From: an uncultured Bacilli bacterium
GTDB lineage: Bacteria > Bacillota_I > Bacilli_A > RFN20 > CAG-288
Direction: 5' to 3'
DNA length: 64,000 bases
Assembly (NCBI GenBank): GCA_963544395.1
Contig: CAUUFA010000001.1
Span: 66-64,065, forward strand
Positions 11,751 to 48,160 of the stretch are shown here, piece after piece; position 1 is the stretch's first letter; every line of letters starts with the position of its first letter. The notes beneath the pieces were generated by a model that was given only the letters and a program-made list of their open reading frames with translations, made no database searches and was not told where the DNA came from. The position numbers and the translations under genes were made by a program.

Positions 11751-11842
11751 TTCTTTCTCCGATTTCGAGAAGGCATTCATTTGCCTTGTGAAGAACGAAC
11801 AGATTCTATATACTCTTCCCGTCACAAAGTGAGGAGACGAAC

Positions 11843-12220: not shown

Positions 12221-12317
12221 AACATCATTATCAACAAAAGGCTGCCAGAGACCATGTCAATGACAGCCTTTTTTCGTTTCGGAATTTCAGCCCGTCGAAT
12301 CAACAACCGCTTCTCGT

Positions 12318-32157: not shown

Positions 32158-35100
32158 TTAGAAGAACAAAGTCCAGTTTTTAGGGTTCAAAATGGTAGAG
32201 AAGACTTCTTTCAACGCCTCTGGCGACGCTAGTTCGAGAAGCTTTTTACCAGGGCTTGCAATTTTGTTTTGTAAACCAGTGTATCTAGACATGTTCGCAG
32301 CTTCGACCATGAATGAGAATTTATCCCCTTTTCCGGTCAAATCACAATAACGGATTGATGAACCGTGATGTGCTTTAAGCGAGACTCTAGCTCTAGTCAA
32401 ATTTCCTTTCCCGACATAGACTGTTTTGCCACTGTCGTCCAGAATCTCGTAAGAGCCACAACCATTATGTACGATGAGCAAACACCCGCACAATACAACA
32501 TATGTGTGGAACCCTTGGACGTTCAGATTGTATGTTTTGATTGGAGACGCTAATTTTTCAAATCTAACGTCTTTTAGCATTTTATCACAGCCTTTTGTCT
32601 TGAGGCAATAGCCCTTCTTTAGCTCGGACGCCGGCTTCCATCCTTCTTCAGTGAGGAAGCGGTGTCCTGGCGTGCAGATGATCTCGTCGTTGCCGATGAA
32701 GAGATGAACGACCTCGGCGGTCTCGTTGACGTAGACGTCCAGAACCTCCTTTTCGTCGTAGATTCCAAGGTCTTCGTCGTAAGAGAGGACCTTATCGCCT
32801 TGTTGGATTTCGTCTATGGCTTTCATGCCGAGCGAGGTAGCGACGAGCGTGCCGGAGACGAAACAGTATGAAGGGTTCATAGCGCCGGATATCGCCCCGC
32901 CGATCGCTCCCCACATGAAGCCATCAGCTGCGCCTTCGACGGCACCGGTGAAGGCTCCTCTTAGGGCTCCTTCCCATGTCCCAGTCCTGATACCTTCCGT
33001 GATTGCTCCCTGGACCGCCCCGGTGACGGCACCGACGGCAGCGCCGATTGCAGCGCCTTTCACAGCTCCCACGAGCATGGAGGTGGCTATGCAGGAAGCG
33101 CCTAATCCCCCTGTGGCTACGACAGCAATCGCGCAGACAGCGATGACGGCGACGCCGATGAGCAGCTTGGTGAACCAGTTTCCCCATTGCCCATTCTCGT
33201 CCGTCATGCCGATGGGGTTGCAGGAGCAGTAGGCGAAGAGGTTCATGCCCATTGTCTCACCGATTTTTCCTATCTGGGAGTCCATGCTTATGAATCTGCC
33301 GAGGTCAGGGTCGTAGTATCTGGTCTTGAGATAATAGAACCCCGTCTCGTCGTCATGGAAGTATCCGCGGAACATGAAGTGGTTTAGCTTCGCAATCTCT
33401 TTTCCCATTGCCGAATCGTCGATGTGGACTTGAGGCACGCCCCAGTCGTCGTAGTCGTAGGAGACATAGGAATGTCCCTTTGCGTCGATGACGGAGGCGA
33501 TGTCGCCCATGATGTTCCTCTCGTAGAAGTACTCCTTGTTTTCGTAGGTAAAGCCGACGAGCTGCCCAGCCTCGTCGTAGTTGAAGAGGACGATCTTTTC
33601 GTCACCACCCTCGACCCTCTTCATGGCCGCAATCCTGTCTCCCTCGATCGAATAGAACTCGTCGAAGTTGCTAGAGCGTTTTGTCGTGCGAATTCCGTCG
33701 GCGTTGTATTCGTAGGTGGTGCCGTTGGTGGACTTCAGCCTTCTTCCGGACCAAGACATGCGGATGTCGATGCCCGGTTTTTTGATCCTCGTCGGATTCC
33801 CGACGAAGGAATCGCCGTACTCGATGAATGTGCCGTCGCTTCTGGACACCAGCCTGTCCTTTATCGACGTGTCGTATCCATAGATCATGCCGTCCTTCGA
33901 CGTGATGTTGTTGTTCGCGTCGTAGGCATAGGAATGGGCGATGCCGCCGTGGTTTGAGGAAACGAGCCTTCCGAGTCCATCGTAGGTATATGTCTTGTCC
34001 GCCGGCAGCGTGGCGTTGTCCGATCCAGCCTTCCTGTAGGAGACGGACGAGATGCTTCCGAGCTTATCGTATCCATAGGCGATCTCGTGTCCGAGGAAGT
34101 TAGTCTCCTTCTCGACCTTCGTCGTGGTCAGGCCGGAGTTTCTCCTGTAGGAATACGCCTTTTCAAGAGCGGCGCCGTCCGTGACAATTTCCTTGGAAGC
34201 CGTTCTTCCGAGCTCGTCGTAATGGGTTCTGACGGAAACGGAGCAGCCTTCTTCTGCGATGGCGGAGACCCTTTCGTCGTCGATAAGACGATCGGAGAAA
34301 GCCAGCATTTCGATGCAGCCCTCGAGATGGTCGATTGGCTTACCGTACCCGTCGACGTCGCATCCGACATAAGTGAGGCAGCCGTCTAAATCGATGGCGT
34401 TGCTGAAAGCAAACGAACCGCTGTTGCCGTCGAGATCGATTTTAACAGACTTGCCGTCCCATCGAACTGCCAGACGGTGCCACGAGTCGCTTCCGACCGA
34501 AACACCTCCCAAAGTGAATTGCTGACTTCCGCTTTCGATTCGAAGCTTTCCGGCTTCGAGGAAGACCTTGAGGACTTTCGTGCCTTTGCCGGCGGAAAGC
34601 AGGAATCGCTTCCCGGAGACGGATCCCTTCGGCTTGAAGCGCATCGTGATGGTCCCCTCGTCCTTCAACAGGAGGTCGTATGCCAGCTTGGATGGGTTGC
34701 CGCGGTTCAGATTGACGAGGGAGCCGTAGCTTCCGTATACATGGCGTCTTTCCTCCTGGTCGAACTCGAAGGCCCTCGACTTGTCGACCTTGAAGGATGC
34801 CTCCGTGTAGGAGAACTCCTTGGGTTGCATCCTGTTGAGCGAGACGAGGGAGCCATTAAGGGAGATGACGTCCATACCTTCGTAGACCTTGGCATTGGAC
34901 CACGTGACGCCGCTGGCACCGTAGATTGGCTCGCCGAGAAGATACTTCTTTCCTTCCTCGTAGATTCCCTTGTAGTCGTCCTCCTCGTAGTCATAGGAAC
35001 CGACCCCTGCGAAGGCGAGGCGGAAGGCCATGTTGATAGGGTATTCCTTCTTGAGGCTGCCGCCGTCGTCGAGTTTGTAGAGGTCCATGAGGGTGAGGCT

Positions 35101-38100
35101 CTGGGAAGGCTCGCCAATGTGGAAGTACTTGAGCACTTTGAAATCCTTTGAGCAGGCGTAGTCCGTGCTCTTCACCTCGCCGTTGAGGACGAACATGGCG
35201 TAGATCCTGTCTCCAGATTTGGCGAACTTCATGCCGACGAGGTTCCAAGTGTCCATGGAAATCTTTCCATTGGAAGTGAGGATAGGTTTTTTTCCAGCAC
35301 TGTAGTCGTAGATGGAGATAGTCCCATCCTTCTCGGCAATCAACGTGAGCCTCTCGGCCTTGTAGATTTTGCTCGCATAGGTGAAGATCTTCTGCTGCCC
35401 GGCAATTGTGCCACTTGGCTTAATCCATCCGAACGCGCTCCTGCGGAAGGTCATGTCCGCCTTCCAGGCCGAATAGGAGAAGCGGTTGCTGATAGTGGAC
35501 TCCGGCTTTCTTGTGGAGTTGAGCGTGTCGATGTCGTAGATGACTGTGGCATTGTCGCTCTTGAAGGAAAGAGACTGGACGGTGTCGCCCAATGGGGAAT
35601 CGTCGTCGACGTTTATGCTCTCGGTGTAGGTAGTGTTCAGAATCGGCCTGCCGCCGTACATGCCCTTGAGGCCGCTTCCACCCTTGATGATTTCGTCTGG
35701 AAAAGCTCGTGCGAGTCTGGCGAGGTATCCGCTTGGCGTGTAGTCGTTGTACTCGCATTTGTATTCGAAGTCGATGCCCCTTCTGATGCCGAAGACAGTC
35801 TCGTCGATTCTCTGGAGGTTCTTGAGGTTGTCGGTGAAGTAGTGGAAGGAATCGTCCCCATGCTCGGAGGTTCCGTCTTCCCAGACGACCTTCCTGTTGG
35901 CGACGTTCCCGTCGGAATCGTAGTCGATGTATTCCCGGCATTTGTTGACGGCATCGTATACGCATGTGGCCATGTCGAATTCGTCATAGGTGTATTCTGC
36001 CTGGCGGATGCCGTTGAAGTTCACGTAGGATAGCCTTAGCTTGCCGTCGTAGCCGAAGTCGTAGTAGCCGCATGTGTCGTCTTGTCCGAGCGTCTGTCTC
36101 GTTGGCAGTCCGGTGTTGACTCCGCCGACCGACTTGCCGTATTCGTTCGAAACGATAGTCTTCCCGTCGAGGGTGACCCTCTTGATCTTTTGTGCTCCGT
36201 CGTATTCGAATCTGTAGACGGCGCCAGAACCAGTGGTGATCTTTGTGACGTTGCCGTTCGCATCGTATTCGTACTGGCAGGAGGACGAAGTGCCGTTGAG
36301 GCTATGCAATTGCTTTGAGAGCTCGCCTGCCGAGTTGTATGTGTATGTCATTGTTGTGCCGTTGGCGGAGGTCTTCTTTATCTTCCTTCCGAGGGAATCG
36401 TATTCGTATCGGGTGACGTTCCCGTCGTCGTCCGTCTCCGAAAGGACGTTCTTGCGGTCGTCGTATGTCGAGGAGGTCTTGAGAATGTCGCCGGCGCTGG
36501 AGACGACCTTCGTCTCGGTTTTGCAGCCGTTGGAGTACTTGAACTGAACCTTGGTATTCTGATTGTTGGTGATTTGGGAGACGGTCCCATCCTCGTTGAA
36601 GGAGTATCTGTAGGAATCGCCGGATTCATCGGTTGCCTCCGTGACTCTTTCGTTCTTGTCGTAGGAGACCTCTGCGGTCGTTCCGTCGGCGTTCACCATT
36701 TGGGTCATGTCCTTCTTCTCGTTGTAGGTGTACTGCTTGCCGAAGGAATCGCGGTATAGCTGGACAGCCTCGAACCAAACGTCGTTTGCACTCCTCGAGA
36801 AGAGGGTCACCGTGACCTTGTCGTATGCGCGCTCCGCAACGATGCTTCTGGTGAGTACCTGCCAGGAGTCGAAGTTTGGGTCGAAGTCGAAGCTGTGCTC
36901 AGAAGTGGTGCCCGTATCCACGTAATGGATCTTGACGGACACGCCGAACCTGTCGTTTGATGACGTGGTGCCTTTGCCGAAGCAGGTGAGGAGCAGCTCG
37001 TCTCCGGCTCCGCCATGAATCTCTATCTCTCTCTTGGCGGACTTTTCCTTGGTGATGTCACCAGAAAGCTTCATTGCCCTTTGTCCGAGGAATCCTTGAT
37101 AGGTATATGCGTCATAGATTAGGCCGATTCCGTCCAACGCGCCGCAATTGCTCATTTCCCACGGGTGATTTCCACCTGTTTCGAACCAACCATCGACGAT
37201 GTAGTTGTGCCTGATCTGGTGGTCGCCGCGGCAAAGCTGGATGTCATCGACAAATGCGGTGTATCCGCTGCCCGAGAGGAAAATGCTAACGTAGACGCTC
37301 AAGTGCTTATAGGTGTTTCCGCTAGTATCCGGAATGAAGATACTTCTGTTGTTCGCTTCAACCCAGTCGAAGTTACCGGAGAAATCGTTCTGAAGGGTGT
37401 AGACGTCCGTCATCCATACTTCCTTGGTGACTGTGGAACCGCCACCGTTGGATTTTCCGCTCTTGGTCTTGGAACCGCCTGAAGAGCCAGAAATGGTGGT
37501 TTTTTTCGTATATTCGACCTTAAGCTGCACCTTGATGTCGCCTGCATTGATGGCGCCAGTGGTCTTCATCCCTTTGATGAACACCCTGAAGGCATATGTT
37601 CCGGGGACAGGGGTACTGACGTATTGGTTGATCTTGACGTCGGAGGTCCCTTTTTCTATCATGAGGCATTTTTGTCCGTAGACTCCTCCGTCGACCACCT
37701 TAATGCCGTCCCTGCTGCCGCTAGAAAGCTTCCAGGCAGCGTTCTCGCCGAAAAGAGTCTCCTCGGTCTCGAACGAGCTGTTGTCGATGACGTTCCTTTC
37801 GTTGACTTGGACATTTGATTCGGATGTGAGCCCGCCAAGTTTTCCGTCAATGACTTCGCCGTAGTTTCGGGTAATAGACTTAGCCTCGTCGTCGATCATG
37901 ACCTTGCATCGGCCGTATCCGTCGAAGAAGTAGTCGACGTAGCGTCCGGTGTAGTCAGTCACACGGGTTTTCATCCCATTGTAGTCGAAGGTGCTGAAGG
38001 GGTTGCCGGTCGATGACGTGCCGCATTCTGTCTTGTGCACCCTTCCGGAGCCTTCGTATCCGATTTTTTCATGAATGCCTCCCTTGGCATCTTCGGCCGT

Positions 38101-39327
38101 GAGGAGCCTTCCAGAGGAATCATAAGTGAAGGCAGCTTCCTTGACGATGGAGGAGCTTGTTCCGATATAGCCGTAAGCATATTTGAGGCTTCCGACATCC
38201 CACGCGAAAGTCGTTTTGGCGATTAGGGTGCCATTGCAATCGTAGGCCCTGGCAGTGCTGACCTGGCGATTGGAATAGGAAATGTCGAGTCTCTCGCCTT
38301 CGCTGTTTCTGATGGAGGTCGGGCCGCTGGAGCCGAGAGTGTATGTTACCGTCTTTCTGTTCTCCAGTTCGAGCTTCGCAACCTTGAAGTTGGAGCCGCT
38401 TTTCTCGAATATCATCTTGTTACCCTTCTTGTCCACGAGAATGGCCTTGTTCCCGTCATTGCCGACAAGGAGGTATGTGGCGTCCGAGAAGGAGAGGAAG
38501 TAGGATCCCTCGATGTCCTCTATGGGTTCCAAATCGTAATTGTCCTTGATGTCGTCAGGCTCGCACCTATAGTAGCGCGTGGTCTTTCCACTCGGCTCGA
38601 CGATGTCATAGGTGTTGTCGTCAATCTTACTCATCTCGTATTCCGAGTTGGCTTTCCATTTTCCGTTGGAATAGAAGAAATCCAAAGTAATCGGGGCCTT
38701 TTCGCTAGGTGTGCCTATGGCCTCGAATTTGTGGATCAATTCGCCGGTGGCCACGTTCATGCTGGTGACGCCGGCATACCCGACCTCGTTCTGGACATAC
38801 TCGTACATGGAGTCAAGCCCGGAGATTTGGGCGAGCTGCATCTGTGCCACCACCTCGGAGTTGATGACCTCTTCGTTGATTTCCTTGACCTCGACGGAGC
38901 CATTGTCAGCTACGACCTTGAAGTAGAGGTCGACGGAAGATTTTCCGTCAAGCTTCGCTCTCAAGTATTTGGAGATGTCGAATTCAACGACGATCTCCGC
39001 CTGTCCGTAAGGGGCACTCTTGCCATCAAAGTTGACTGTGTCGATTTTGGCTCCGAGACTGCTTGTGTTGTCATTATTGAAATCTTCTTCGGAGCTTTCG
39101 TAGATTGAAATGGTGGCACTTCTTGTCGGTTCTTTCGCAGCCATCCTTATTGAAGCCGCAGCCACTTTGTGGGAAGAGAAGGGAACATCCGTTATGGACA
39201 GTTTCGCCTTCATGCAGTTGCCGGTCTTGAGGGCAATATATCCGTCCCCGTCCGCAGTCGCATTGCAGTATTTTCCATCGAATTGCATTTTTGGCTTCGA
39301 TGAGCCGTTGTTAATGTTGATAATCAT
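32158..39327 (-). CDS. Rhs/YD-repeat polymorphic toxin (2389 aa) with LamG/CBM-like modules, Gly-zipper TM region, Hint domain and GIY-YIG-like C-terminal toxin
   Basis: Many YD repeats (YEYDSLGRKIKK, YEYDANGNVTKI, YTYDGLGRLVS, YAYDANNNITS). The core-closing motif is RYYDPDLGRFISMDS. The Hint module runs CFVSGTLV...LIVHN. The tail is SYEILDDSGKTVYVGKG..R. The N-terminus (MIININNGSSKPKMQFDGKY) has no signal peptide and no LXG/WXG-like helix pattern. Confidence 0.9.
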   Translation of the reverse strand: MIININNGSSKPKMQFDGKYCNATADGDGYIALKTGNCMKAKLSITDVPFSSHKVAAASIRMAAKEPTRSATISIYESSEEDFNNDNTSSLGAKIDTVNFDGKSAPYGQAEIVVEFDISKYLRAKLDGKSSVDLYFKVVADNGSVEVKEINEEVINSEVVAQMQLAQISGLDSMYEYVQNEVGYAGVTSMNVATGELIHKFEAIGTPSEKAPITLDFFYSNGKWKANSEYEMSKIDDNTYDIVEPSGKTTRYYRCEPDDIKDNYDLEPIEDIEGSYFLSFSDATYLLVGNDGNKAILVDKKGNKMIFEKSGSNFKVAKLELENRKTVTYTLGSSGPTSIRNSEGERLDISYSNRQVSTARAYDCNGTLIAKTTFAWDVGSLKYAYGYIGTSSSIVKEAAFTYDSSGRLLTAEDAKGGIHEKIGYEGSGRVHKTECGTSSTGNPFSTFDYNGMKTRVTDYTGRYVDYFFDGYGRCKVMIDDEAKSITRNYGEVIDGKLGGLTSESNVQVNERNVIDNSSFETEETLFGENAAWKLSSGSRDGIKVVDGGVYGQKCLMIEKGTSDVKINQYVSTPVPGTYAFRVFIKGMKTTGAINAGDIKVQLKVEYTKKTTISGSSGGSKTKSGKSNGGGSTVTKEVWMTDVYTLQNDFSGNFDWVEANNRSIFIPDTSGNTYKHLSVYVSIFLSGSGYTAFVDDIQLCRGDHQIRHNYIVDGWFETGGNHPWEMSNCGALDGIGLIYDAYTYQGFLGQRAMKLSGDITKEKSAKREIEIHGGAGDELLLTCFGKGTTSSNDRFGVSVKIHYVDTGTTSEHSFDFDPNFDSWQVLTRSIVAERAYDKVTVTLFSRSANDVWFEAVQLYRDSFGKQYTYNEKKDMTQMVNADGTTAEVSYDKNERVTEATDESGDSYRYSFNEDGTVSQITNNQNTKVQFKYSNGCKTETKVVSSAGDILKTSSTYDDRKNVLSETDDDGNVTRYEYDSLGRKIKKTSANGTTMTYTYNSAGELSKQLHSLNGTSSSCQYEYDANGNVTKITTGSGAVYRFEYDGAQKIKRVTLDGKTIVSNEYGKSVGGVNTGLPTRQTLGQDDTCGYYDFGYDGKLRLSYVNFNGIRQAEYTYDEFDMATCVYDAVNKCREYIDYDSDGNVANRKVVWEDGTSEHGDDSFHYFTDNLKNLQRIDETVFGIRRGIDFEYKCEYNDYTPSGYLARLARAFPDEIIKGGSGLKGMYGGRPILNTTYTESINVDDDSPLGDTVQSLSFKSDNATVIYDIDTLNSTRKPESTISNRFSYSAWKADMTFRRSAFGWIKPSGTIAGQQKIFTYASKIYKAERLTLIAEKDGTISIYDYSAGKKPILTSNGKISMDTWNLVGMKFAKSGDRIYAMFVLNGEVKSTDYACSKDFKVLKYFHIGEPSQSLTLMDLYKLDDGGSLKKEYPINMAFRLAFAGVGSYDYEEDDYKGIYEEGKKYLLGEPIYGASGVTWSNAKVYEGMDVISLNGSLVSLNRMQPKEFSYTEASFKVDKSRAFEFDQEERRHVYGSYGSLVNLNRGNPSKLAYDLLLKDEGTITMRFKPKGSVSGKRFLLSAGKGTKVLKVFLEAGKLRIESGSQQFTLGGVSVGSDSWHRLAVRWDGKSVKIDLDGNSGSFAFSNAIDLDGCLTYVGCDVDGYGKPIDHLEGCIEMLAFSDRLIDDERVSAIAEEGCSVSVRTHYDELGRTASKEIVTDGAALEKAYSYRRNSGLTTTKVEKETNFLGHEIAYGYDKLGSISSVSYRKAGSDNATLPADKTYTYDGLGRLVSSNHGGIAHSYAYDANNNITSKDGMIYGYDTSIKDRLVSRSDGTFIEYGDSFVGNPTRIKKPGIDIRMSWSGRRLKSTNGTTYEYNADGIRTTKRSSNFDEFYSIEGDRIAAMKRVEGGDEKIVLFNYDEAGQLVGFTYENKEYFYERNIMGDIASVIDAKGHSYVSYDYDDWGVPQVHIDDSAMGKEIAKLNHFMFRGYFHDDETGFYYLKTRYYDPDLGRFISMDSQIGKIGETMGMNLFAYCSCNPIGMTDENGQWGNWFTKLLIGVAVIAVCAIAVVATGGLGASCIATSMLVGAVKGAAIGAAVGAVTGAVQGAITEGIRTGTWEGALRGAFTGAVEGAADGFMWGAIGGAISGAMNPSYCFVSGTLVATSLGMKAIDEIQQGDKVLSYDEDLGIYDEKEVLDVYVNETAEVVHLFIGNDEIICTPGHRFLTEEGWKPASELKKGYCLKTKGCDKMLKDVRFEKLASPIKTYNLNVQGFHTYVVLCGCLLIVHNGCGSYEILDDSGKTVYVGKGNLTRARVSLKAHHGSSIRYCDLTGKGDKFSFMVEAANMSRYTGLQNKIASPGKKLLELASPEALKEVFSTILNPKNWTLFF

Positions 39328-39347
39328 GTCTTGTTTTTTCCTTTCTG

Positions 39348-40184
39348 TTAAATCAATGTCTTCGCATGTGCTATCGCGCTGATGTCCAGCCTTCGATAGG
39401 CATACCCTTGCGAGAGTATGTCGACCGGTATCCCGACAAGCTCCTGCACATGCTGCTTGAGCTTGTCTATGAGAGACGTCTGCTCCATATTCGTGACGCC
39501 GTCGAAGAACCTCACGAGGAGATCGACGTCACTTCCTTGGTTGAATGTTCCGTCGGCGTATGAGCCGTACAGCCACATCTTCTCGACCTTGTATCCGTTC
39601 ATCAGGACTAGCCTGTCATCTACAATTTTCGAGACGATCTCCTCCCTTGGGACGAGCCTGTGCGGTCTCTTGCATCCTTTCCTAGATGAAGAGAACATTG
39701 CCTGTTCCAGTAGCATCGCGTAGGTTTTTTGCTCGTTAGTCAGGCCTTCTACAATTTCTCCGTAGAAGGCGGGACGAATCGTAAGGCAGAGTCCCCTTCT
39801 CTCGTAGATATGGTTGATGGTGAGGCAGGCGAATTCGGCGAAGCGGTCAATTTCCGCTTTCCTTAGCGCCTCCAGGACATACATGGCCTGGGTGGCAGGT
39901 ACATCGTCGACGTATGAGAGATAGGCCAAGGAAACGGAATTTCCGGCCTCTGCGCCGATGTCAGCGCAGGTAAGAAGGAAGAACGCCTTTCTGACCAGTT
40001 CCTGCGTGAATGGCAGTCTCAACGATCGATGGAGGAAGGCACAGGAATCACATATGCACTTGAAATGCGATTCCTCGGTTCCCCTCGGGGTCATTTTTCC
40101 GAGCATCAATGCTTTCGTGACGTTCCTTTCCATCTGCATCCCCAGCATCCTCGATAGGAAGTGGGGGAAGTCCCTGTCGTGCAT
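39348..40184 (-). CDS. Helical N-domain + minimal nucleotidyltransferase (MNT, Pol-beta superfamily) fusion protein
   Basis: 278 aa. The C-terminal LYGSYADGTFNQGSDVDLLV...IPVDIL is the GS-x(10)-DxD plus third-Asp MNT motif. The N-terminal ~170 aa are unassigned. It is a paralogue of the next gene. Confidence 0.7.
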   Translation of the reverse strand: MHDRDFPHFLSRMLGMQMERNVTKALMLGKMTPRGTEESHFKCICDSCAFLHRSLRLPFTQELVRKAFFLLTCADIGAEAGNSVSLAYLSYVDDVPATQAMYVLEALRKAEIDRFAEFACLTINHIYERRGLCLTIRPAFYGEIVEGLTNEQKTYAMLLEQAMFSSSRKGCKRPHRLVPREEIVSKIVDDRLVLMNGYKVEKMWLYGSYADGTFNQGSDVDLLVRFFDGVTNMEQTSLIDKLKQHVQELVGIPVDILSQGYAYRRLDISAIAHAKTLI

Positions 40185-40185
40185 G

Positions 40186-41043
40186 TCAGAATATCCTCCT
40201 TCTGAATCGCCGAATGTCCTTCGACTCGCAGAAAATGTCGCGGGAGTCTATCACGTCGACGGGAATCGATAGGGATTGCTCGAGGAATCTCTCAAGTTCG
40301 GGGTGTTCCAGTCCTTCGGCGTTCACATCGACAACGACGTCGAGGTCGCTGTATTCGTTGAATAATCCGTTCACGTAGGAACCCGTCATCCAAAGGTGTC
40401 TTACGCCGTGATCGGCTTTAACCCTTTTCCTCATTTCCGACAGCTCCGAGGCAAGTTCGTCAGGCGAATAGTCCCTATGCTTCGTGTTGTAGCGCACTGA
40501 AACGGGGATGAGCCCAGTCATCATACCTTCCAGGTCATCCCTTTCCATCCCGGCATCCGCAAATTGTGCCAACGCCGAGAGGAACTGGTGGTAGAAGATG
40601 ATTGGAAGGTAGCAGTTTTTCGTCATGATCCAGTTGAAAATGCAGGCCGCCACCCTCGAAGTCTCGATTCCGAATATCCCGGTCCTGACGCAGCGGATGA
40701 ACATGGTTGTTGCTGCATCGGGTCCTTCGTCGTTCTGAGAGATCTCCAACTCCTTGGCAAGTCGTTTCCCTTTTTCCTCGGAGAATGATTGGCGAAGGGA
40801 CTTGGAAACCTTCGCAAGGGCATTTTGGAAGTCATCCTCAAGGAAGAAGGAGCGGTATATTTCTTGCCATAGGCGGAGATCCCTTTCGTCGTTGGTTTCC
40901 GGCTCCTTGAGATCGTGGTACACCTTGTTTTTCTCGAACATGCCCTCGAGCCTGTTGCGTTTCGGGTTCGACATGCAGAGGAACTTGAACGGAATCTTTG
41001 GGTTCATGGATCCGCATTTGAGAATCGTGAATTCTTTGATCAT
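40186..41043 (-). CDS. Helical N-domain + minimal nucleotidyltransferase (MNT) fusion protein
   Basis: 285 aa with C-terminal MTGSYVNGLFNEYSDLDVVVDV...IPVDVIDS. ATGA-coupled to the holin upstream. One nt separates its stop from the next ATG. Confidence 0.7.
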   Translation of the reverse strand: MIKEFTILKCGSMNPKIPFKFLCMSNPKRNRLEGMFEKNKVYHDLKEPETNDERDLRLWQEIYRSFFLEDDFQNALAKVSKSLRQSFSEEKGKRLAKELEISQNDEGPDAATTMFIRCVRTGIFGIETSRVAACIFNWIMTKNCYLPIIFYHQFLSALAQFADAGMERDDLEGMMTGLIPVSVRYNTKHRDYSPDELASELSEMRKRVKADHGVRHLWMTGSYVNGLFNEYSDLDVVVDVNAEGLEHPELERFLEQSLSIPVDVIDSRDIFCESKDIRRFRRRIF

Positions 41044-41330
41044 TCCTTTTCACCTCCATTTTTCTTTTGGAAAAGCTGCTTGATAATCTGATTGGCTCCC
41101 GTGGAACCTCCACCAGACACGAAGCCGATAACCAAGGCTTCGTAAACGTTTTCTGCATTCACAAGCTCAGGTGCAGTGAAATAGATGAGCACCGCTAGAA
41201 TCCCTCCGGCCACGATTGTGACGACGGGAATGAACTTATAGGCGCTATCGACTTTCTTGAAAATGAGCTTGTAGATTTCGCCAATGACATAGCAGCAGAC
41301 GACTATGATTGGCACATAGGCAATGTCCAT
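41040..41330 (-). CDS. Phage holin (phi-LC3 / Phage_holin_1-like)
   Basis: 96 aa with TM helices (VPIIVVCCYVIGEIY; FIPVVTIVAGGILAVLIYF) and the GFVSGGGSTGANQIIKQ motif typical of LC3-type holins. Confidence 0.6.
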   Translation of the reverse strand: MDIAYVPIIVVCCYVIGEIYKLIFKKVDSAYKFIPVVTIVAGGILAVLIYFTAPELVNAENVYEALVIGFVSGGGSTGANQIIKQLFQKKNGGEKE

Positions 41331-41335
41331 TTGGT

Positions 41336-41629
41336 TTAATTTCCTCCCTTCCCGCAGAGCTCGTCTATTCGCTTTTCGGCATTCTTGATGGATTCCTCGA
41401 GCTTTGCTAGACGCTCCGCGACATTGCGGTATCTTTCGTCGACGATTCCGATGTTCTTTTCGACCCTGTCGACACAGGCTTTGATGTATCCGATGTCGGA
41501 TAGCATCGTCCCTTCGTGCTTGCCTTCCTTGTGATGATCCATTCGCTCGTTTCGCCTAAAGGCCAATAGAGCGAAAAGGATGCTCGAAAGGGAAGCGACA
41601 AGGGAAGTGATAGAAATAGCTAATTCCAC
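41336..41629 (-). CDS. N-terminal TM + coiled-coil protein, paralogue of 30467-30781
   Basis: 97 aa with a GTG start 9 nt after AGGAGG. Contains TM ISITSLVASLSSILFALLAF and then a coiled coil. Confidence 0.6.
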   Translation of the reverse strand: MELAISITSLVASLSSILFALLAFRRNERMDHHKEGKHEGTMLSDIGYIKACVDRVEKNIGIVDERYRNVAERLAKLEESIKNAEKRIDELCGKGGN

Positions 41630-41653
41630 ATACCTTTACCTCCTATGTGATTA

Positions 41654-41722
41654 AGTGAAGGCTAGGAGAGCTTCGCCGCTTTCCACCCCCCCGACCCAAG
41701 CGGGTGGCTCTCTTCGCCTTCA
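41654..41722. promoter_or_regulatory. GC-rich compound palindrome between the sigma-like gene and the holin/Rhs operon
   Basis: Outer stem GTGAAGGC/GCCTTCAC plus GAGAGC/GCTCTC. The inner pairings CCACCC/GGGTGG and CCGCTT/AAGCGG are mutually exclusive. No U-tract on either strand. Confidence 0.5.
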
Positions 41723-41756
41723 CATGTAAAAGGAGAAAAAACGTCTTCTTGATAAC

Positions 41757-42320
41757 CTAATCGATGAAAGTTTTAAGTTTTTCCTCGATTTCCGCTGAGG
41801 CCTTGACGAGCCTTTTGTGAACGGATGGCTGGGATATGCCAAGGGCTTTTGCTGCGTTTCGCTCAGTGTCACCATTTATCCTTATAGATACGTATATGGT
41901 TCGGTCAGTCTCATCCATAGAAGAGATGGCGGCTTCAAAGGCATCCTGTATTTCAGAATATGAATAAGCCTTGCTAGGATCGTTTTCCGTATCGATAAAA
42001 TCGATGTGCGAATTGCCTTCTTGCATGGCTTCTATGGAAACAGCCGACCCAGCTCGGGAATGGTTTGGCCCGAATGGGCATTCCGTTGAACAGTTGAGGC
42101 GACATTTGACTGGAAGACCATTCTTATTGAAAAGGACGCATCTTGATTCCTCGTCCTTTTGCTTATATTCCTTTTCATCCATGGAACGCAGCATCCTGAA
42201 AAGGGCATAGTCGCACCAGATGCGCCCCTTATATTCCAAGTCGTAGTAACAAGGGGTCTCATCGGTCTTCTCGTAGCCCCATTTGTAGCCGTTTTCTTCA
42301 AAATAATTCTTATTTGTCAT
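41757..42320 (-). CDS. Sigma-70 region-4-type HTH protein with Cys-rich N-terminal domain
   Basis: The C-terminal DRTIYVSIRINGDTERNAAKALGISQPSVHKRLVKASAEIEEKL is a region 4.2-like HTH. Eight Cys lie in the N-terminal half (C..C...C...CRLNCSTEC). The start was set at MTNKN (GGAGGA RBS). Confidence 0.6.
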   Translation of the reverse strand: MTNKNYFEENGYKWGYEKTDETPCYYDLEYKGRIWCDYALFRMLRSMDEKEYKQKDEESRCVLFNKNGLPVKCRLNCSTECPFGPNHSRAGSAVSIEAMQEGNSHIDFIDTENDPSKAYSYSEIQDAFEAAISSMDETDRTIYVSIRINGDTERNAAKALGISQPSVHKRLVKASAEIEEKLKTFID

Positions 42321-42337
42321 AAAAATCCTCCATGAAG

Positions 42338-42404
42338 TCACGGAGGAAAGACATTTCGGACAGGCTAAAAAAGACGCCTTTTCCTCATGGAAACACCTCC
42401 GTGA
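42338..42404. promoter_or_regulatory. 9-bp perfect inverted repeat TCACGGAGG...CCTCCGTGA in the divergent intergenic region
   Basis: The arms are at 42338-42346 and 42396-42404. The repeat lies directly upstream of the sigma-like gene start. Confidence 0.4.
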
Positions 42405-42671: not shown

Positions 42672-43667
42672 ATGGATGACAAGATAACCTTTGCGAAATT
42701 TATCGATATTCTTTCAATTAGCAGGAAGAGCCCGACATACATTTTCCTTCCTGAGCTTTTGGATGCTTTTACAGGTTGGAAGTTGAATAATGGTGAACTG
42801 GATTTGCCAAACCTTTGCGACGAAGCAAATCCAAATACGCTGAAAGCGAAAGCCAACGGCAAAAGGGAGATTTCCAAGGAGGAAGCGACGACATTGCTCG
42901 AGAATTACGACCACGATGCCTTGGAAACCTATTTCTACGATTTGATATCGAACGTCCATCTGGTCGAGATAAGGAACGCCATCGTCCGTTATGGCTTCAA
43001 GTTAAAAACCAGCCTCGATGATTCTTCGATTCCAGAGATATGCGCGAAGCTGATGAAGAAGATAATCTATGATCTGAGCGTTGGCAGGAAGGAAACGTTG
43101 CCTCCTCTCGAGTATCTTGATTTCAAAAGCCTAAGCGCCACGGCCTTCAAGGCAGCTGAATTCAAGGACGGTGCCCTTTACATAAATGGCGAGAAGATTC
43201 CGATATCGAGGAAGCTTTCGCAGATGGACATCAAAGTCGACGGCAATCTGCTTTTCGTCAAGAGGCTGTTCGAGGTCTATTCCGAGGCGCTTGGCAAATC
43301 GGTTTCGGAGCCAAAGGATCTTCTCGGCACAAAATTCGAAAGGCATCTCTCCGAGCACACCAAGTTCTACTTCGAGGCGAGGTACAAGGGAAATGCCGCA
43401 AGGGAATTGTTCGACGAAGGCGAAAGCGAATTCAACGCCATAAAAGATGAGATAGAAGCAGGCATTTTCGATGCCCTTTATTTCGGAAAATACGACAGCG
43501 GCATGGATAGGTTGACAAAGGTCATGAACGCTGTTGCGGCGAATCTCCAGCTGAACAGCTCTTTGCTTTTGAACATCAGGGGCTTCATCAACGTTCCTAC
43601 CAGAAAGGGGATCCTTCATATCCTGGTCGAGGTGGGAAGGATTAAGTCATGGGTGAACCCGGAATGA
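42672..43667 (+). CDS. Effector-position protein of a Lamassu/ABC-3C-like operon (unknown N-domain + helical C-terminal adaptor-like domain)
   Basis: 331 aa and helical, with no catalytic motif recognised. The C-terminal ...DRLTKVMNAVAANLQ...TRKGILHILVEVGRIKSWV resembles ABC-3C effector C-terminal domains as I remember them. ATGA-coupled to the next gene. Confidence 0.55.
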   Translation: MDDKITFAKFIDILSISRKSPTYIFLPELLDAFTGWKLNNGELDLPNLCDEANPNTLKAKANGKREISKEEATTLLENYDHDALETYFYDLISNVHLVEIRNAIVRYGFKLKTSLDDSSIPEICAKLMKKIIYDLSVGRKETLPPLEYLDFKSLSATAFKAAEFKDGALYINGEKIPISRKLSQMDIKVDGNLLFVKRLFEVYSEALGKSVSEPKDLLGTKFERHLSEHTKFYFEARYKGNAARELFDEGESEFNAIKDEIEAGIFDALYFGKYDSGMDRLTKVMNAVAANLQLNSSLLLNIRGFINVPTRKGILHILVEVGRIKSWVNPE

Positions 43668-44101
43668 GCAGCAGCGTTTTCAACTCGGTATACGAGACGA
43701 GCTTGAGGCTCGTGTTGCTGCTTTCTGCTTTCGAGGAGCCATTAACCTCCGAAGAGCTTTTCGCCTTCGATTTCGTATCCACGTACGGGAAGGAGTTCGG
43801 CTTGACCGACGTCAGCTTGAACGGGGACAGCGAATTTACCATGAGCAAAGCAACCCTGAGGAGGAAAAGGGTCATGGAATCGATTTCGTATTTAGTAAGA
43901 AACGGTTATGCGGCACCTGTCGCAGTGGAGGATGTGGTAAGGTACGAACTGCTCGAAAAAGGGGAAAAGCTATATAAAAAAATATATTCCACTGGATATG
44001 CCGAGAAATATATCTTGACCGTGGAGCTGGGAAAAAATGGCCTATTTTCCAAAAACGAAAGCGCCTTGAATCTAATACTCGAGAAAATAAAGGAGGGGTA
44101 A
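43664..44101 (+). CDS. Middle-component-like small protein (LmuC / ABC-3C MC position)
   Basis: 145 aa from MSSSVF (ATGA overlap with the upstream stop). Helical with a probable winged-helix region (RRKRVMESISYLVRNGYA). It sits between the effector and the ATPase. Confidence 0.5.
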   Translation: MSSSVFNSVYETSLRLVLLLSAFEEPLTSEELFAFDFVSTYGKEFGLTDVSLNGDSEFTMSKATLRRKRVMESISYLVRNGYAAPVAVEDVVRYELLEKGEKLYKKIYSTGYAEKYILTVELGKNGLFSKNESALNLILEKIKEG

Positions 44102-44104
44102 TGA

Positions 44105-45928
44105 ATGGACGACATTTACTTCAGGAAAGTCATCGCCCGCGGAATTGGCAAGAGGGAATCATCCGTGGAGCTCTCGCGTGGGCTCAATATAATCTGCGGT
44201 CCGTCAAATACTGGGAAAACCCTGATATTCAAGGTGTTCAAGCAGGTATTCGGTGCGGAAAACAAAAAAGGGCTAAAAAACGACGATGAGCCATTTATCA
44301 TCGAGAATGATACGGGATACACCGACTTTTCGCTCGTGATATCAAAAAACGGCGACGATGTCATGCTTACGAGGAAAATCGATTCGGACATAATAAGCGT
44401 CGAAAGCAATAGCCCTTATGTGGAGTCTGGCGATTACGCATATACGACCAAGAGGGGTTACAAGCTCATCAACGAAGCTCTTTTGCAGATTTTCAATGTC
44501 GAGCCGTTCAAGCTCCCGTCCAAAAAGGACGGTACGCCCACCTCTTTCTCATTGAAATTCCTCGACTACCTATTTTTGGCCGACGAAGAGCGAATCGACA
44601 AAGGCAGCCAAATCCTGCTGTTCCACAGTCAGAAATACGACTCGACGACACAATCGCAGGCCAACCTGCTTTACCTGCTTTACGATCTGGATTTTTCGCG
44701 TTTCCTGAAAAACGAGGACACGGAAAAGGCCACGATTAGAAGAGGCGCGGTCAGAAAATACATAAACGCCAGGATCGAAAGCAATCAGAAGGAGATCTCC
44801 TCGCTCGAAAAGAAATTAAAGGAACTACCGATGGTAGAGAGCGACTCGAACGTACTTCAAAGCGAGCTTGACAAAATTAGGGAGAAGATTGATGGCAAGT
44901 ATAAAGAGAGCTCTGATTTGGAAGGCTCTATAAGAGAGCTGAGCGAAAAGATGGAGTCAGACGGAATGCTGATTGAGAGGCTTGAGAGCCTTTCGTCCCA
45001 ATACACGTCGGATTTGGAAAGGCTGAATTTCATCATCTCCGGAAAGGACGACTTGGACTCCAACGAAGAAGAGCACGAATGCCCATATTGCCATAGCCGA
45101 ATCCGCGAGGAAAAAGGTCAAGTCAGCATAGAAGAATTCAAAAACGAGGCTAAATCGGCTCTCAATAATCTCAACGACGTTTCAGAAACCCTTTCCGACC
45201 TATTGAAAGAGAACAAGGAAGACGAAAAGAAGCATAAGGCGTATCAGGAAAAGCTTTCGGAGGTCGGGCTAGACATCGGCAAACTGTCGAAAGAAAGAGA
45301 AAATCTCGAAAGCACATTGAGGCGATTCGATGAGCTTATCGAGTGTCAAAAGCGCATCAAATACCTGCAAAATGACAACGAAAACCTGGAAAAAGATTTA
45401 TTCGAAATATCAGGGCAAGTCAAAGTCAAAAGGGAGGAATTTAAACCGAGTGAGCTTTTCCAAGCATCCTTTTTCCAGGCAATGACCACAAACATCAGGG
45501 GAATCATGGGCTATTGCGGCGACCAAAGATACATCTCAACCGAGTTCGACAGGGCGAGCTTCGACATTTCAGTTCGTGGTCAAAGCAAATCGGCGAACAA
45601 CGGGAAGGGATACAGATCCTTCCTCAATTCCGTGACCCTCCTGTCGTTTAGGAAATTTCTTGATGAAAAAGGAAAGCACAGACTGCCCGTTTACGTCTTG
45701 GACTCCCCACTGAAGAACCTTGACGTTGGTGTGCTCGACAGGGACAACATAAAGGACAGGTTCTTCAGATACCTCACGGAAGCCTCAAGGCTTGGGCAGC
45801 TAATAATCATCGAAAACACGAACAACTTCACCATGACAGATGAATTGAGGCAAAATGCCAACGTCATAGAATTCACTCACGGTGCGAAGGAAGGCCGTTA
45901 TGGATTCTTGCTGGATCATCATGATTGA
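44105..45928 (+). CDS. Rad50/SMC-like ABC ATPase with coiled-coil insertion and central CxxC (LmuB-like)
   Basis: 607 aa with an AAGGAGGGG RBS. Walker A GPSNTGKT (aa 32-39), a ~220-aa heptad-rich insertion, CPYC at aa 326-329, and a C-terminal GKGYRSFLN...LPVYVLDSPLKNLD (signature-like plus Walker B/D-loop). Confidence 0.8.
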   Translation: MDDIYFRKVIARGIGKRESSVELSRGLNIICGPSNTGKTLIFKVFKQVFGAENKKGLKNDDEPFIIENDTGYTDFSLVISKNGDDVMLTRKIDSDIISVESNSPYVESGDYAYTTKRGYKLINEALLQIFNVEPFKLPSKKDGTPTSFSLKFLDYLFLADEERIDKGSQILLFHSQKYDSTTQSQANLLYLLYDLDFSRFLKNEDTEKATIRRGAVRKYINARIESNQKEISSLEKKLKELPMVESDSNVLQSELDKIREKIDGKYKESSDLEGSIRELSEKMESDGMLIERLESLSSQYTSDLERLNFIISGKDDLDSNEEEHECPYCHSRIREEKGQVSIEEFKNEAKSALNNLNDVSETLSDLLKENKEDEKKHKAYQEKLSEVGLDIGKLSKERENLESTLRRFDELIECQKRIKYLQNDNENLEKDLFEISGQVKVKREEFKPSELFQASFFQAMTTNIRGIMGYCGDQRYISTEFDRASFDISVRGQSKSANNGKGYRSFLNSVTLLSFRKFLDEKGKHRLPVYVLDSPLKNLDVGVLDRDNIKDRFFRYLTEASRLGQLIIIENTNNFTMTDELRQNANVIEFTHGAKEGRYGFLLDHHD

Positions 45929-45989
45929 ACTTAATTTATTATGTGGAGTTTAGCATACCTAAATGATAAAATAATGAAGGGTGCTAATA

Positions 45990-46289
45990 ATGCTTCAACA
46001 GATATTTGGAAACAAAGTCAGGGAATCGAGAATCCAGCAGGGTTTGTCGCAAGACGAATTGGCTCTTTGCTGTGGAATGGATCGCCCTCAGATTACCAAA
46101 ATCGAACAAGGAAAGGTCAATGTCACGCTTGAAACGATAGAAAGACTTAGCCAGGCTCTAAAAACCAAGACGTCATTGCTTCTGGATGAGAATCTTTCCC
46201 TGCATCCGTTTGTTAAATGGGCTGGAGGGAAGACTCAGCTTTTGGATAGGCTTCATGCCTATATGCCTAACGAATTCAACAATTATTTA
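45990..46289 (+). pseudogene. XRE-HTH::Dam-type (D12 class) adenine methyltransferase, truncated by IS insertion
   Basis: XRE HTH (RIQQGLSQDELALCCGMDRPQITKIEQGKVNVTLETIERLSQAL), then HPFVKWAGGKTQLLDRLHAYMP (the Dam N-terminal KWAGGK motif). The reading frame runs into the IS left end at 46290 after ~30 aa of the MTase domain. Confidence 0.7.
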
Positions 46290-48160
46290 AACCTAAACTT
46301 TTCATGGTTTATACTACCATCTAGATGAAAATGCCGTTTCCTGCTTCGGAGGCGGCTTTTTTGATGGTTTTCTTCTCTTTTTTTGCTTAGAAATCCATTC
46401 CGGTTTTCTTTCGGTGGCGGTATAATACTACCATATAAGGAGGAAGGCCATGGTACACACGAACATCGAGGTTGAAACGCCCAAGCACATCAGGATCCGA
46501 AAGCAGAACGGCAACAGATACGTCTATCTCGTCACCGGCAGAAAAGGCGACAGCAAGGGAAACGAGAAAGACGTCACGGTCCTCATCGGCCGCGAAAGCC
46601 GAAAGGGATTCATGAATCCGAACGACAAATATTTCAGGATGTTCCCTGACAGCGGGACGATGTCCGACGTGCTTGAGCCCTCTTCCTTCGACACCCAGTC
46701 AAGGATCGGTTCCGTCGCAGCCATATACGGAGTGGCGGAGAAGACCGGACTGAAGTCCTGCCTCGACCTCGCCTTCGGAAAGGACGCTCCGCTGATTCTT
46801 TCGCTCGCATCGTATTATCTCATCGCCCGCGATTCGGCGGCTATGCTGTATTCGGATTTCATGTTCGACCATTACGGAAAGGCCGATACGATCGCATCGG
46901 AGGCAACGATCAGCAGACTCTTCAATGTCTCGATGTCAAGGGACAAGGTCGACTCGTTCCGTTCCGCGTTCCTGAAGCACTGCTTCACCAATTCGGACAA
47001 GACGAAGAAAAGGGTATACGTGGACATCGATTCCACCAATTTCAACGTCTCCTCCGCGGGCTGCGACTCCGCCGAATACGGAAAGGCAAAGGACGACGAG
47101 GGCCTTCCGCAGATCAACATGGCTTACTTTCACGACCGCCAGAGCGGAATGCCGATATTCTACGATTCCTTCTATGGCTCGATCACTGATCTGAGCCACT
47201 GCATAACCGGAATCAAGTCGTTCTTCGACAACCTGAACATAAGCAAAAAGAATGTCGGGTACGATTTCATACTAGACAGAGGATACTTCAGCGAGACAAA
47301 CATGGGATATCTCAGTGACAGCGGAGTCTCCTTTGCCGTAATGGGCAAGACATGCGAAATGTACAGGAACCACCTGGATGCGAACCGCGACCTCATCAGA
47401 AGCTCCGCAAGCCTGATTTCGATGGGACTGTACGGAACAAGAGTCCAGGGGAAGGCCTTCAAAGGCGCGAATGCCGACGACTACTATATCTATCTCTATT
47501 TCGATTCCACGAAGGAAGCCGAGGAAAAATGCGGGATAGAGGCAAAGCTCATCGATGCCAAGAAGGCCCTCGAAGGAAAGAAAAAGGACGGGAACGGAAG
47601 CCTGAGAAGGACGTACGGAAAATACCTCTGCATCGAGACGAAGGGGAAGGAGGAAACAATCAGGAAGGTCACGGTCAACAGCGGCAGCGACGATTCGATG
47701 CTGAAGGACGCAGGCTATTTCTGGATTGTGTCCACGATGAAGATGGAGCCTGAGGAGATGCTTAGGGCATACAGGGAAAGGGACGAGATCGAGAAATGCT
47801 TCCGCATCGTGAAGAGCGAAAGCGACCTGAATAAGACGTATGCGCAGAACGACAACGCGCTGTACGCCAAGCTCCTCATGGGCTTCATCACGTCAGTGAT
47901 CAAAGCGGAGTTCACCTTCCAGACGGGGGAACTTTCCCACAGAAAAGGCAACCTGAGCGTCCAGAAGATGCTCATGGCACTCGACAAGATCATCATGTAT
48001 AAGGTAAGCGGACACTATTCCATGAAGTACGCATATACTGCCCTACAGCAGGAAATCCTCAACGCTCTTTCGATCGAGAGTTCATCCATCGAAGCCATCG
48101 TCACCGACTGGAACTCCCGGCTTAAAAAGTGATGGTAGTATAAAACGTGAAAAGTTTAGG
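46290..48160 (+). mobile_element. IS element copy 2 (identical to 27489-29359), same orientation
   Basis: Same 1871-bp sequence and the same IRs (46292-46320 and 48132-48160). Confidence 0.9.
46450..48132 (+). CDS. DDE transposase (IS1634/IS4 family), copy 2
   Basis: The 560-aa translation is identical to 27649-29331. Confidence 0.88.
   Translation: MVHTNIEVETPKHIRIRKQNGNRYVYLVTGRKGDSKGNEKDVTVLIGRESRKGFMNPNDKYFRMFPDSGTMSDVLEPSSFDTQSRIGSVAAIYGVAEKTGLKSCLDLAFGKDAPLILSLASYYLIARDSAAMLYSDFMFDHYGKADTIASEATISRLFNVSMSRDKVDSFRSAFLKHCFTNSDKTKKRVYVDIDSTNFNVSSAGCDSAEYGKAKDDEGLPQINMAYFHDRQSGMPIFYDSFYGSITDLSHCITGIKSFFDNLNISKKNVGYDFILDRGYFSETNMGYLSDSGVSFAVMGKTCEMYRNHLDANRDLIRSSASLISMGLYGTRVQGKAFKGANADDYYIYLYFDSTKEAEEKCGIEAKLIDAKKALEGKKKDGNGSLRRTYGKYLCIETKGKEETIRKVTVNSGSDDSMLKDAGYFWIVSTMKMEPEEMLRAYRERDEIEKCFRIVKSESDLNKTYAQNDNALYAKLLMGFITSVIKAEFTFQTGELSHRKGNLSVQKMLMALDKIIMYKVSGHYSMKYAYTALQQEILNALSIESSSIEAIVTDWNSRLKK

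Follow-up and report, generated by a model that had tools for sequence, protein, structure and literature searches.

A short type II Lamassu operon of the CTD6/MC2 subtype with an uncharacterised, probably non-catalytic LmuA head in an uncultured Bacilli genome

Introduction

Three structural studies by cryo-electron microscopy (cryo-EM) of Lamassu systems whose effector is a Cap4 nuclease have described a resting complex in which one inactive LmuA monomer is held, through its C-terminal domain (CTD), on a dimer of LmuB together with LmuC; DNA ends and ATP release LmuA, and the free protein tetramerises through the same CTD, which activates its head. The characterised short type II members, DdmABC of Vibrio cholerae and LmuACB of Salmonella (both Cap4-CTD7-MC3), are made of an effector, a middle component and an SMC-like ATPase, and the same order of parts is found in the operon that we describe here. 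It occupies positions 42672-45928 (+ strand) of a stretch of 64,000 nucleotides (hereafter the window; GenBank assembly GCA_963544395.1, contig CAUUFA010000001.1, positions 66 to 64,065) from an uncultured Bacilli bacterium. A sequence-only reading of this DNA had taken the operon for a Lamassu or ABC-three-component (ABC-3C) module with an effector of undescribed chemistry. Our analysis leads us to conclude that it is a short, type II (LmuA-LmuC-LmuB) Lamassu/ABC-3C system of the CTD6/MC2 subtype, set in a hotspot-like defence locus, and that the claim on the effector is better put as an uncharacterised, probably non-catalytic head within a subtype that is already catalogued.

The window operon shares with DdmABC and Salmonella LmuACB an LmuB of about 600 amino acids (aa) whose Walker A is canonical and whose Walker B is degenerate, and the CTD that serves there as docking and oligomerisation module of LmuA would have its counterpart here by analogy. 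Unlike their Cap4/PD-(D/E)xK nuclease, the head of the window LmuA shows no catalytic residues; CTD6 and MC2 stand in place of CTD7 and MC3, and the window LmuB has a CxxC zinc hook whereas that of V. cholerae has none. Heads described in short Lamassu include SMEK and HNH (PMC12663957), SMEK being counted among nuclease domains (PMC10810196). In one group of short Lamassu, 'Clade O', the effector domain of LmuA has seemingly been lost (Haudiquet et al. 2025, PMC12663957); like the window system, whose family it might represent, it combines a short Lamassu build, intact LmuB and LmuC, and no recognisable effector, but unlike in that description the N-terminal region is present in the window, folded, under selection and about 145 aa long. 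A lactococcal plasmid Lamassu (PMC11381338), considered as a candidate for the same subtype, proved to be of the long Cap4 type instead.

Results

The operon consists of three coupled open reading frames (ORFs) in the order lmuA-lmuC-lmuB, as read from the ORF listing and from the sequence. The co-directional arrangement, the ATGA overlap and the ribosome-binding site followed by a 3-nt gap that the sequence-only reading had noted were all recovered at their positions, and its features are as follows.

42672..43667, + strand: lmuA, 331 aa (ORF); effector/adaptor subunit of a short type II Lamassu, PADLOC PDLC03857
42672..43106, + strand: LmuA head, aa 1-145, acidic and all-alpha with about seven helices in the AlphaFold2 (AF2) model; no known family
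43107..43250, + strand: LmuA linker with a small beta-meander, aa 146-193, motifs ETLPPL and LYINGEKI (AF2 and conservation)
43254..43652, + strand: LmuA CTD6, aa 195-327, Pfam PF20282, E 1.9e-20
43664..43667, + strand: ATGA overlap read from the sequence, lmuC ATG on lmuA TGA, coupling lmuA to lmuC
43664..44101, + strand: lmuC, 145 aa from the ATG in the ATGA overlap; ABC-3C middle component MC2
44090..44098, + strand: lmuB ribosome-binding site AAGGAGGGG, read from the sequence
44105..45928, + strand: lmuB, 607 aa; short-type SMC/Rad50-like ABC ATPase, presumed DNA sensor, PADLOC PDLC03867
44198..44221, + strand: LmuB Walker A GPSNTGKT, aa 32-39, fitting Gx4GK[S/T]
45080..45091, + strand: LmuB zinc-hook CPYC at the coiled-coil apex, aa 326-329, single CxxC motif
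45689..45706, + strand: LmuB Walker B VYVLDS, aa 529-534, a D-S variant fitting the short-Lamassu hhhhD[Q/S/T/E]

The ORF listing offers an alternative start of lmuC at 43649, which would give 150 aa; its stop codon TAA lies at 44099-44101, and after the 3-nt gap the ATG of lmuB begins at 44105. Scans for promoters and terminators returned counts near the shuffled expectation and were uninformative.

The assignment to Lamassu, proposed before on gene order and motifs, was borne out at the level of each product. LmuA matches the PADLOC LmuA model PDLC03857 over nearly its whole length (aa 6-330 against model positions 2-325 of 327, E 3.9e-49), in addition to the Pfam match of its CTD6; LmuC matches both Pfam MC2 (PF20288, aa 5-140, E 4e-23) and the PADLOC LmuC model PDLC03875 (E 2e-30); and LmuB matches PDLC03867 from end to end (aa 1-605 against 1-603 of 605, E 2.7e-142). 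Because all three products match their families so strongly, the operon lies far beyond chance. An ATPase of the LmuB type, an MC2 protein encoded between lmuA and lmuB, a CTD on LmuA, tight co-directional linkage and a mobile or defence context are all found, and we hold with high confidence that the operon is a member of the Lamassu/ABC-3C group. What LmuA does not show is a recognisable enzymatic N-terminus (Cap4, Mrr, PDDEXK, SMEK, HNH, Sir2, protease, lipase, hydrolase or FMO); this missing enzymatic head is a property of the catalogued subtype and not an exclusion from Lamassu. Searches of PDB sequences with LmuA, LmuC and LmuB gave nothing relevant, the LmuA profile matching de-novo designed proteins by chance.

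LmuB carries the Walker A, the charged, heptad-rich insertion (about aa 215-445) and the C-terminal Walker B that had been pointed out in it. Short LmuB proteins have been defined by a length of about 600 aa, a Walker A Gx4GK[S/T], a Walker B hhhhD[Q/S/T/E] and 0-2 CxxC hooks (Haudiquet et al. 2025, PMC12663957), and the window protein agrees with every one of these features. Against the NCBIfam models of housekeeping ATPases it scores 11-42 bits where the cut-offs are 300-1087, the best being ASRP (42 bits, cut-off 300), SMC (29, cut-off 729) and Rad50 (25, cut-off 700). The genes next to lmuB are lmuA and lmuC, which encode neither a nuclease nor a kleisin.

Since the head lies within PDLC03857 and a streptococcal prophage operon outscores the window on the same models, the subtype was already catalogued in a defence database of 2023 (PADLOC-DB v2). 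The head alone matches positions 2-180 of PDLC03857 (E 3.3e-15), and 18 of the 19 family members match the model. Genes 0054-0056 of Streptococcus prophage Javan630 are the best-scoring example, with 410, 194 and 851 bits on PDLC03857, PDLC03875 and PDLC03867; the window LmuA, LmuC and LmuB reach 166, 104 and 473 bits. Gene order, protein sizes (333/150/609 against 331/145/607 aa) and domain build (head and CTD6, MC2, short LmuB) are alike in the two, whereas their LmuA proteins are only 24.5% identical (tblastn, aa 54-329), the window proteins being divergent, and the Javan630 operon sits in a prophage where the window copy sits in an insertion sequence (IS)-bracketed chromosomal island of a gut metagenome-assembled genome (MAG) lineage. 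The operon of the window is thus an ordinary, if divergent, member of a subtype already known to defence-finder tools. NCBI names several members 'ABC-three component system protein', and the published name of the subtype may be the 'Lamassu-Hypothetical' of DefenseFinder.

The LmuA family is rare and patchy. LmuA has 22 close homologues; an exhaustive search of 1.84 billion representatives with a hidden Markov model of the head returned 14 proteins, half of them full-length LmuA-like proteins of 314-341 aa and the other seven shorter proteins or fragments, except for one 738-aa repeat protein that matches weakly and in part. A wider, word-indexed search of 5.8 billion 90%-identity cluster representatives gave about 95 clusters, nearly all of proteins of about 330 aa with CTD6, and within the LmuA family the head is always fused to CTD6. 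Streptococcus suis, Erysipelothrix, Clostridium, Lysinibacillus, Acidilutibacter and Anaerovoracaceae account for the named members and gut metagenomes for the remainder; the genomes nearest to the window are gut MAGs of uncultured 'Bacilli' or 'Mollicutes'. The sequence-only reading would have been undermined had the first two genes occurred apart from such ATPases; lmuA, lmuC and lmuB were found together in every homologous locus examined, and the intact operon is kept in L001-L005 and L011-L016 of our numbered loci, with prophage Javan630 among the carriers. There is no conserved fourth gene in the homologous loci examined. The ORFs of the window are intact and of the same lengths as those of the homologues.

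The head of LmuA is the part for which a known effector class was sought in vain, and here the earlier proposal of an unknown effector stands in so far as no such class is matched and falls in so far as the subtype itself is already in PDLC03857. Modelling the whole of LmuA by AF2 from 18 close homologues gave a poor result (predicted local distance difference test, pLDDT, 58), and a model of the head alone, built from 19 divergent sequences, was used instead; its mean pLDDT is 83.6, with values above 90 across nearly all of aa 11-140, and it consists of seven helices. The linker that follows is predicted to form strands at 162-176, at low pLDDT. Only eight positions of the head are conserved (at least 85% in a set made non-redundant at 60%), namely L29, N53, P54, G63, A125, L127, D134 and G138, the last seven of which are those kept across the roughly 95 clusters. 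They look like a structural pattern and not a catalytic set: His, Cys, Ser, Lys, Arg and Glu are all missing from them, and the conserved polar side chains are one acidic and one amide. The net charge of the window head is -4 and its isoelectric point (pI) 5.2, the family median being -7 with a pI of about 5, and this acidity argues against simple DNA binding. The ratio of non-synonymous to synonymous substitution rates (dN/dS) is 0.04-0.06 for the head against 0.06-0.07 for the CTD, in pairs with unsaturated dS, which amounts to strong purifying selection; the dN of the head is in the range of that of the CTD, lower in some informative pairs and higher in others. The head is under selection and not decaying.

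No Pfam or NCBIfam family matches the head (aa 1 to about 195) of the window LmuA, no Pfam family matches the head of any of the 19 family members, and no nucleotide- or metal-binding motif is visible in it. Foldseek comparison of the head model with the PDB gave nothing significant (best E 1.3). Xre/cI-type helix-turn-helix (HTH) structures recur among these noise-level matches (E 4-8, target TM-score, TMt, at most 0.42), and no HTH family of Pfam matches the head at E <= 1 in the 19 members. The segment aa 54-79 of LmuA (window 42831-42908), motif NTLKAKANGKREISKEEATTLLENY, resembles the Xre/cI signature of recognition helix, G-K-R and helix 4; in the AF2 model an ordered loop or insertion of about 20 residues precedes NTLKAKANGKREISKEEATTLLENY, where helix 2 and the turn of an HTH would sit. 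We have downgraded the head as a DNA-binding HTH, given its acidity, this insertion and the insignificance of the matches, and have set aside SMEK and HNH nucleases, which have no Pfam match in a head that is all-alpha. The absence of a catalytic motif, noted by the sequence-only reading for the first two genes, holds for LmuA and LmuC alike.

Relatives of the head were found outside Lamassu, in phage cassettes built around other nucleoside triphosphatases (NTPases). In BFVD, Foldseek matched the head model to three proteins of gut phages, uncharacterised and 141, 279 and 426 aa long (probability 1.0, query TM-score, TMq, 0.50-0.55, root-mean-square deviation 2.7-4.7 A over about 142 columns). 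At the level of sequence, a related N-terminal domain of about 125 aa occurs in Terrisporobacter phage TPDSL_ph1, Erysipelothrix phage phi1605 and phage NatCom_9287, as well as in the Ruminococcus phages NatCom_28775 and NatCom_3870 and in Streptococcus phage PhiSdyV1524. The profile of the head aligned by hhalign with that of the phage N-domain at a probability of 96.6% and E 5e-10 over 117 columns after a shared sequence, P0032, had been removed from both sides (99% and E 5e-18 before its removal), and with a single phage sequence at 91% and E 1e-6. The TPDSL_ph1 and NatCom_9287 proteins match the PHROG family phrog_6948, annotated as of unknown function, to which direct hmmscan of the window head gave no match at E <= 0.01. 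The cassettes are these.

TPDSL_ph1 and phi1605: head protein of 278 aa; partner a RecD/Dda-like superfamily 1 (SF1) helicase of 918-930 aa
NatCom_9287: head protein of 187 aa; partners a 216-aa protein, then a 759-aa AAA_13 ABC ATPase (Pfam E 3e-114)
PhiSdyV1524: head protein of 372 aa; partners a 74-aa protein, then a 552-aa 'chromosome segregation protein' (annotation) with a P-loop-like motif
Positions of the head-started phage cassettes: L006 4001-7648; L008 5001-8612; L007 4001-7518; L010 5001-7992

The head is therefore a module reused across cassettes with different NTPases. The phrog_6948 proteins (for example TPDSL_ph1 CDS0042 and phi1605 SER90K_17) share with LmuA the helical N-domain homologous to the head, about 125 aa long, and like lmuA their genes open the cassette, with the divergent small gene on one side of it and on the other a small gene whose annotation is repressor or regulator; unlike LmuA they have C-termini unrelated to CTD6, and the partners in the phage cassettes are the helicase, the AAA_13 ATPase or the 552-aa protein, not LmuC and LmuB. 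One of the BFVD matches, at 279 aa, resembles TPDSL CDS0042 (278 aa) in length. In the 372-aa protein of PhiSdyV1524-fexAoptrA (L010 5001-6119) a Cys-rich, HNH-like segment comes after the head, CCAFPGCD...YEVSVIE...NLIALCPDCF, whose sequence suggests an inactivated zinc ribbon, the catalytic histidines being apparently replaced by Ser or Val, and Phe. We found no description of this reuse of the head across phage-borne cassettes in the literature available to search, and the cassettes look like uncharacterised, prophage-encoded defence candidates.

The cassettes occupy a common hotspot. Its phage replication genes (DNA polymerase I or primase in most loci; where identified, an Enc34/Gp2.5-like single-stranded DNA-binding protein and a DUF2800/PDDEXK protein or annotated exonuclease) end in a small gene, sigma-70 region-4-like wherever this was tested, from which the head-started cassette diverges; and in most loci there follows a small gene of Xre/HTH_26 type or annotated as repressor or regulator, often with a restriction-modification (R-M) gene after it. 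The same layout surrounds LmuACB in C. saccharobutylicum and Acidilutibacter, and the window keeps it, with the sigma-like gene on the minus strand, LmuACB, and an HTH-fused Dam methylase gene that is cut by an IS.

41757..42341, - strand: small sigma-70 region-4 protein gene (Pfam Sigma70_r4_2), context only, at the left border of the hotspot layout
45981..46289, + strand: remnant of an HTH-fused Dam-type (D12) methylase of a DpnII-type R-M system (Pfam HTH_3); the IS cuts the gene at 46290

A small gene (150-212 aa) lies divergent and upstream of the head cassette in every locus examined (L004 4067-4519, L006 2857-3480, L007 3050-3556, L008 3718-4290, L009 3959-4576, L011 4078-4596). In the window, L002, L005, L006 (TPDSL_ph1), L011 and L012 it encodes a sigma-70 region-4-like protein, elsewhere one without family match or unscanned, and the small proteins are weakly similar in pairs (a MAG protein against that of NatCom_9287, E 1e-5 in a nine-sequence database). 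Phage replication genes adjoin the operon in Javan630, C. saccharobutylicum and Acidilutibacter. R-M systems stand directly downstream of it in L002, L011, L013 and L014, and the downstream flank varies between genomes. L002 keeps an intact DpnII-type system (9311-12566) of a 347-aa HTH-Dam methylase, an N6_N4 methylase, a 177-aa ORF and a DpnII restriction endonuclease, where the window has, downstream of the IS, a TetR gene. Hotspot, prophage and R-M context together support a defence role of the operon.

The island described by the sequence-only reading, with its IS borders, R-M remnant and polymorphic toxin, is real. Two identical IS copies of 1871 bp lie in direct orientation at 27489-29359 and 46290-48160, each with a 560-aa DDE transposase and terminal inverted repeats (CCTAAACTTTTCA...). 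The Lamassu operon lies between them in about 17 kb, together with the RHS toxin locus and what remains of the R-M system, so that the region could move as a composite element. The toxin is an RHS/YD protein of 2389 aa with a PT-HINT domain (32158-39327, - strand). It belongs to a block on the minus strand (32158-42341) that adjoins the operon and is conserved in L001-L003 and L005, even at 55% LmuA identity, and that encodes, besides the toxin, nucleotidyltransferase-domain proteins (two in the window), a Hol44 holin, a 97-aa XhlA-like protein and the small sigma-70 region-4 protein. With a sigma factor and a holin next to a large toxin, the block recalls the layout of the pathogenicity locus (PaLoc) of C. 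difficile and may be a holin-dependent toxin-export locus. A prophage lysis cassette was considered for the holin and XhlA-like genes; toxin export fits them better, given their conservation in L005 together with the RHS toxin and the sigma-like gene.

Discussion

It is tempting to carry over to this subtype the activation cycle known from Cap4 Lamassu. By analogy, a dimer of LmuB joined at the CPYC zinc hook would hold LmuC and, by its CTD6, one LmuA in a resting complex, and this complex would sense DNA ends or replication intermediates of phages or plasmids; binding of ATP would free LmuA, a slow hydrolysis being expected from the D-S Walker B, and the freed protein would oligomerise through its CTD. 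CTD6 is presumed to be the domain that docks on LmuB and LmuC and that oligomerises, as its counterparts CTD7 and CTD12 do in solved systems. What the head would do after release is a matter of speculation: multimerised and acidic, it might bind a protein target, most plausibly one of DNA replication or transcription, and sequester or block it, so that the phage would no longer propagate, perhaps at the expense of the host cell. Gene structure, family membership, fold class, conservation, selection and genomic context are what has been observed; the architecture, the trigger, the release and the oligomerisation are inferred from the solved Lamassu systems, and the binding-type output and its target are speculative. 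Taken as a whole, we favour Lamassu-type activation followed by a binding-type, non-enzymatic output of the head, tentatively and at somewhat less than an even chance. The undescribed effector chemistry expected by the sequence-only reading is not what the head suggests: since it is acidic, all-alpha and without conserved residues of a catalytic type, a non-enzymatic role is likelier than new chemistry.

Several points weigh against this explanation. The solved systems pair CTD7 or CTD12 with MC3, where CTD6 and MC2 are found here with no sequence match in the PDB, and the transfer of architecture is for this reason an analogy. A catalytic site of few residues, or one built across subunits on oligomerisation, is possible, D134 and N53 being conserved. 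In PhiSdyV1524 the head stands before an HNH-like and apparently inactive zinc ribbon, where an accessory or regulatory role fits as well as that of an effector. The known Lamassu effectors are all enzymes, and an effector of the binding type would have no precedent in the family. We found no paper in the literature that tests the CTD6/MC2 subtype by experiment.

Among the other explanations, the one that we would take most seriously holds that the head is no effector at all, and we regard it as unlikely while giving it real weight. It would serve in regulation, sensing or self-recognition, for example by binding a phage or prophage protein, by keeping the replication of the resident prophage from setting off the system, or by autoregulating the cassette as a degenerate Xre-like HTH, while LmuB and LmuC, acting directly on DNA ends, or a partner in trans would carry out immunity. 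That the same head opens every alternative cassette of the hotspot, whatever its NTPase, would fit a common phage or host partner better than a cassette-specific weapon; the position of the head before another, HNH-like domain in PhiSdyV1524, the likeness of its motif TL(K/R)xxxNGxxx(I/L)S(K/R)xxAxEL to the stretch from recognition helix to helix 4 of Xre/cI proteins, the recurrence of Xre-type structures among the insignificant Foldseek matches, and a short-Lamassu clade which keeps intact LmuB and LmuC seemingly without an effector domain (PMC12663957) are consistent with such a role. However, the N-domain of LmuA is the effector, and required for defence, in the Lamassu systems that have been tested, and no locus has a conserved fourth gene; as to the HTH, the head is acidic, an ordered insertion of about 20 residues falls at the would-be turn, no HTH family is matched at E <= 1, and the HTH structures matched by Foldseek all have E above 4. 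A genuinely new enzyme, with an active site too sparse or divergent to be recognised and perhaps completed in the LmuA oligomer, seems to us improbable. It would agree with the enzymatic nature of all characterised LmuA heads, with the strong purifying selection on the head, with the conservation of D134 and N53, and with the composite sites that oligomerisation can build, as in the Cap4 tetramer; yet one acidic and one amide side chain are all that is conserved of this kind, with no His, Cys, Ser, Lys, Arg or Glu among them, and the fold is a small helical bundle that matches no enzyme structure and shows no nucleotide- or metal-binding motif.

Decay is a further thought suggested by the surroundings, as the adjacent R-M system was destroyed by insertion of the IS. 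The window system might be an inactive passenger of the island, and the head a vestige or a mere recombination flank for the exchange of cassettes, since a common 5' region could serve homologous recombination. We judge this very improbable: the three ORFs are intact and of the length of their homologues, dN/dS is 0.04-0.07 across LmuA, and the head is conserved as a protein down to about 20% identity, where recombination flanks at the level of DNA are meaningless. That LmuB is a housekeeping repair protein of the RecN, SbcC, RecF or SMC type, in an operon outside defence, would have undone the sequence-only reading and is what the weak matches to SMC and Rad50 models through coiled coil and P-loop, and the upstream synteny conserved among related gut MAGs, might suggest. 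Its NCBIfam scores far under the cut-offs, the absence of an SbcD/Mre11 partner gene, the variable downstream flank, the presence of the operon on prophages and beside R-M systems, and the rarity and patchiness of the family leave this explanation with next to no probability.

A wider proposal concerns the hotspot as a whole. The head could be a new class of non-enzymatic defence output, or a self-recognition module of prophages, that is exchanged among at least four NTPase cassettes at one prophage hotspot of Bacillota, namely short Lamassu and the systems of the AAA_13 ABC ATPase, of the 552-aa 'chromosome segregation protein' and of the RecD/Dda-like helicase. We consider this a possibility on the doubtful side. 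Should it be true, Lamassu could give immunity without a catalytic effector. The Lamassu systems that are understood mechanistically kill by an enzyme, a Cap4 nuclease or a lipase, switched on through release and oligomerisation; the CTD6/MC2 subtype keeps the machinery of sensing and release and carries a head that is not enzyme-like, which makes it well suited to show whether binding or sequestration can be the mode of action of Lamassu, and of SMC-like immune sensors generally. A head shared by unrelated cassettes is also a handle on its target, which could be a common interaction partner or a common toxicity, and it draws attention to three more cassettes, in phages of the gut and of streptococci, as candidates for defence.

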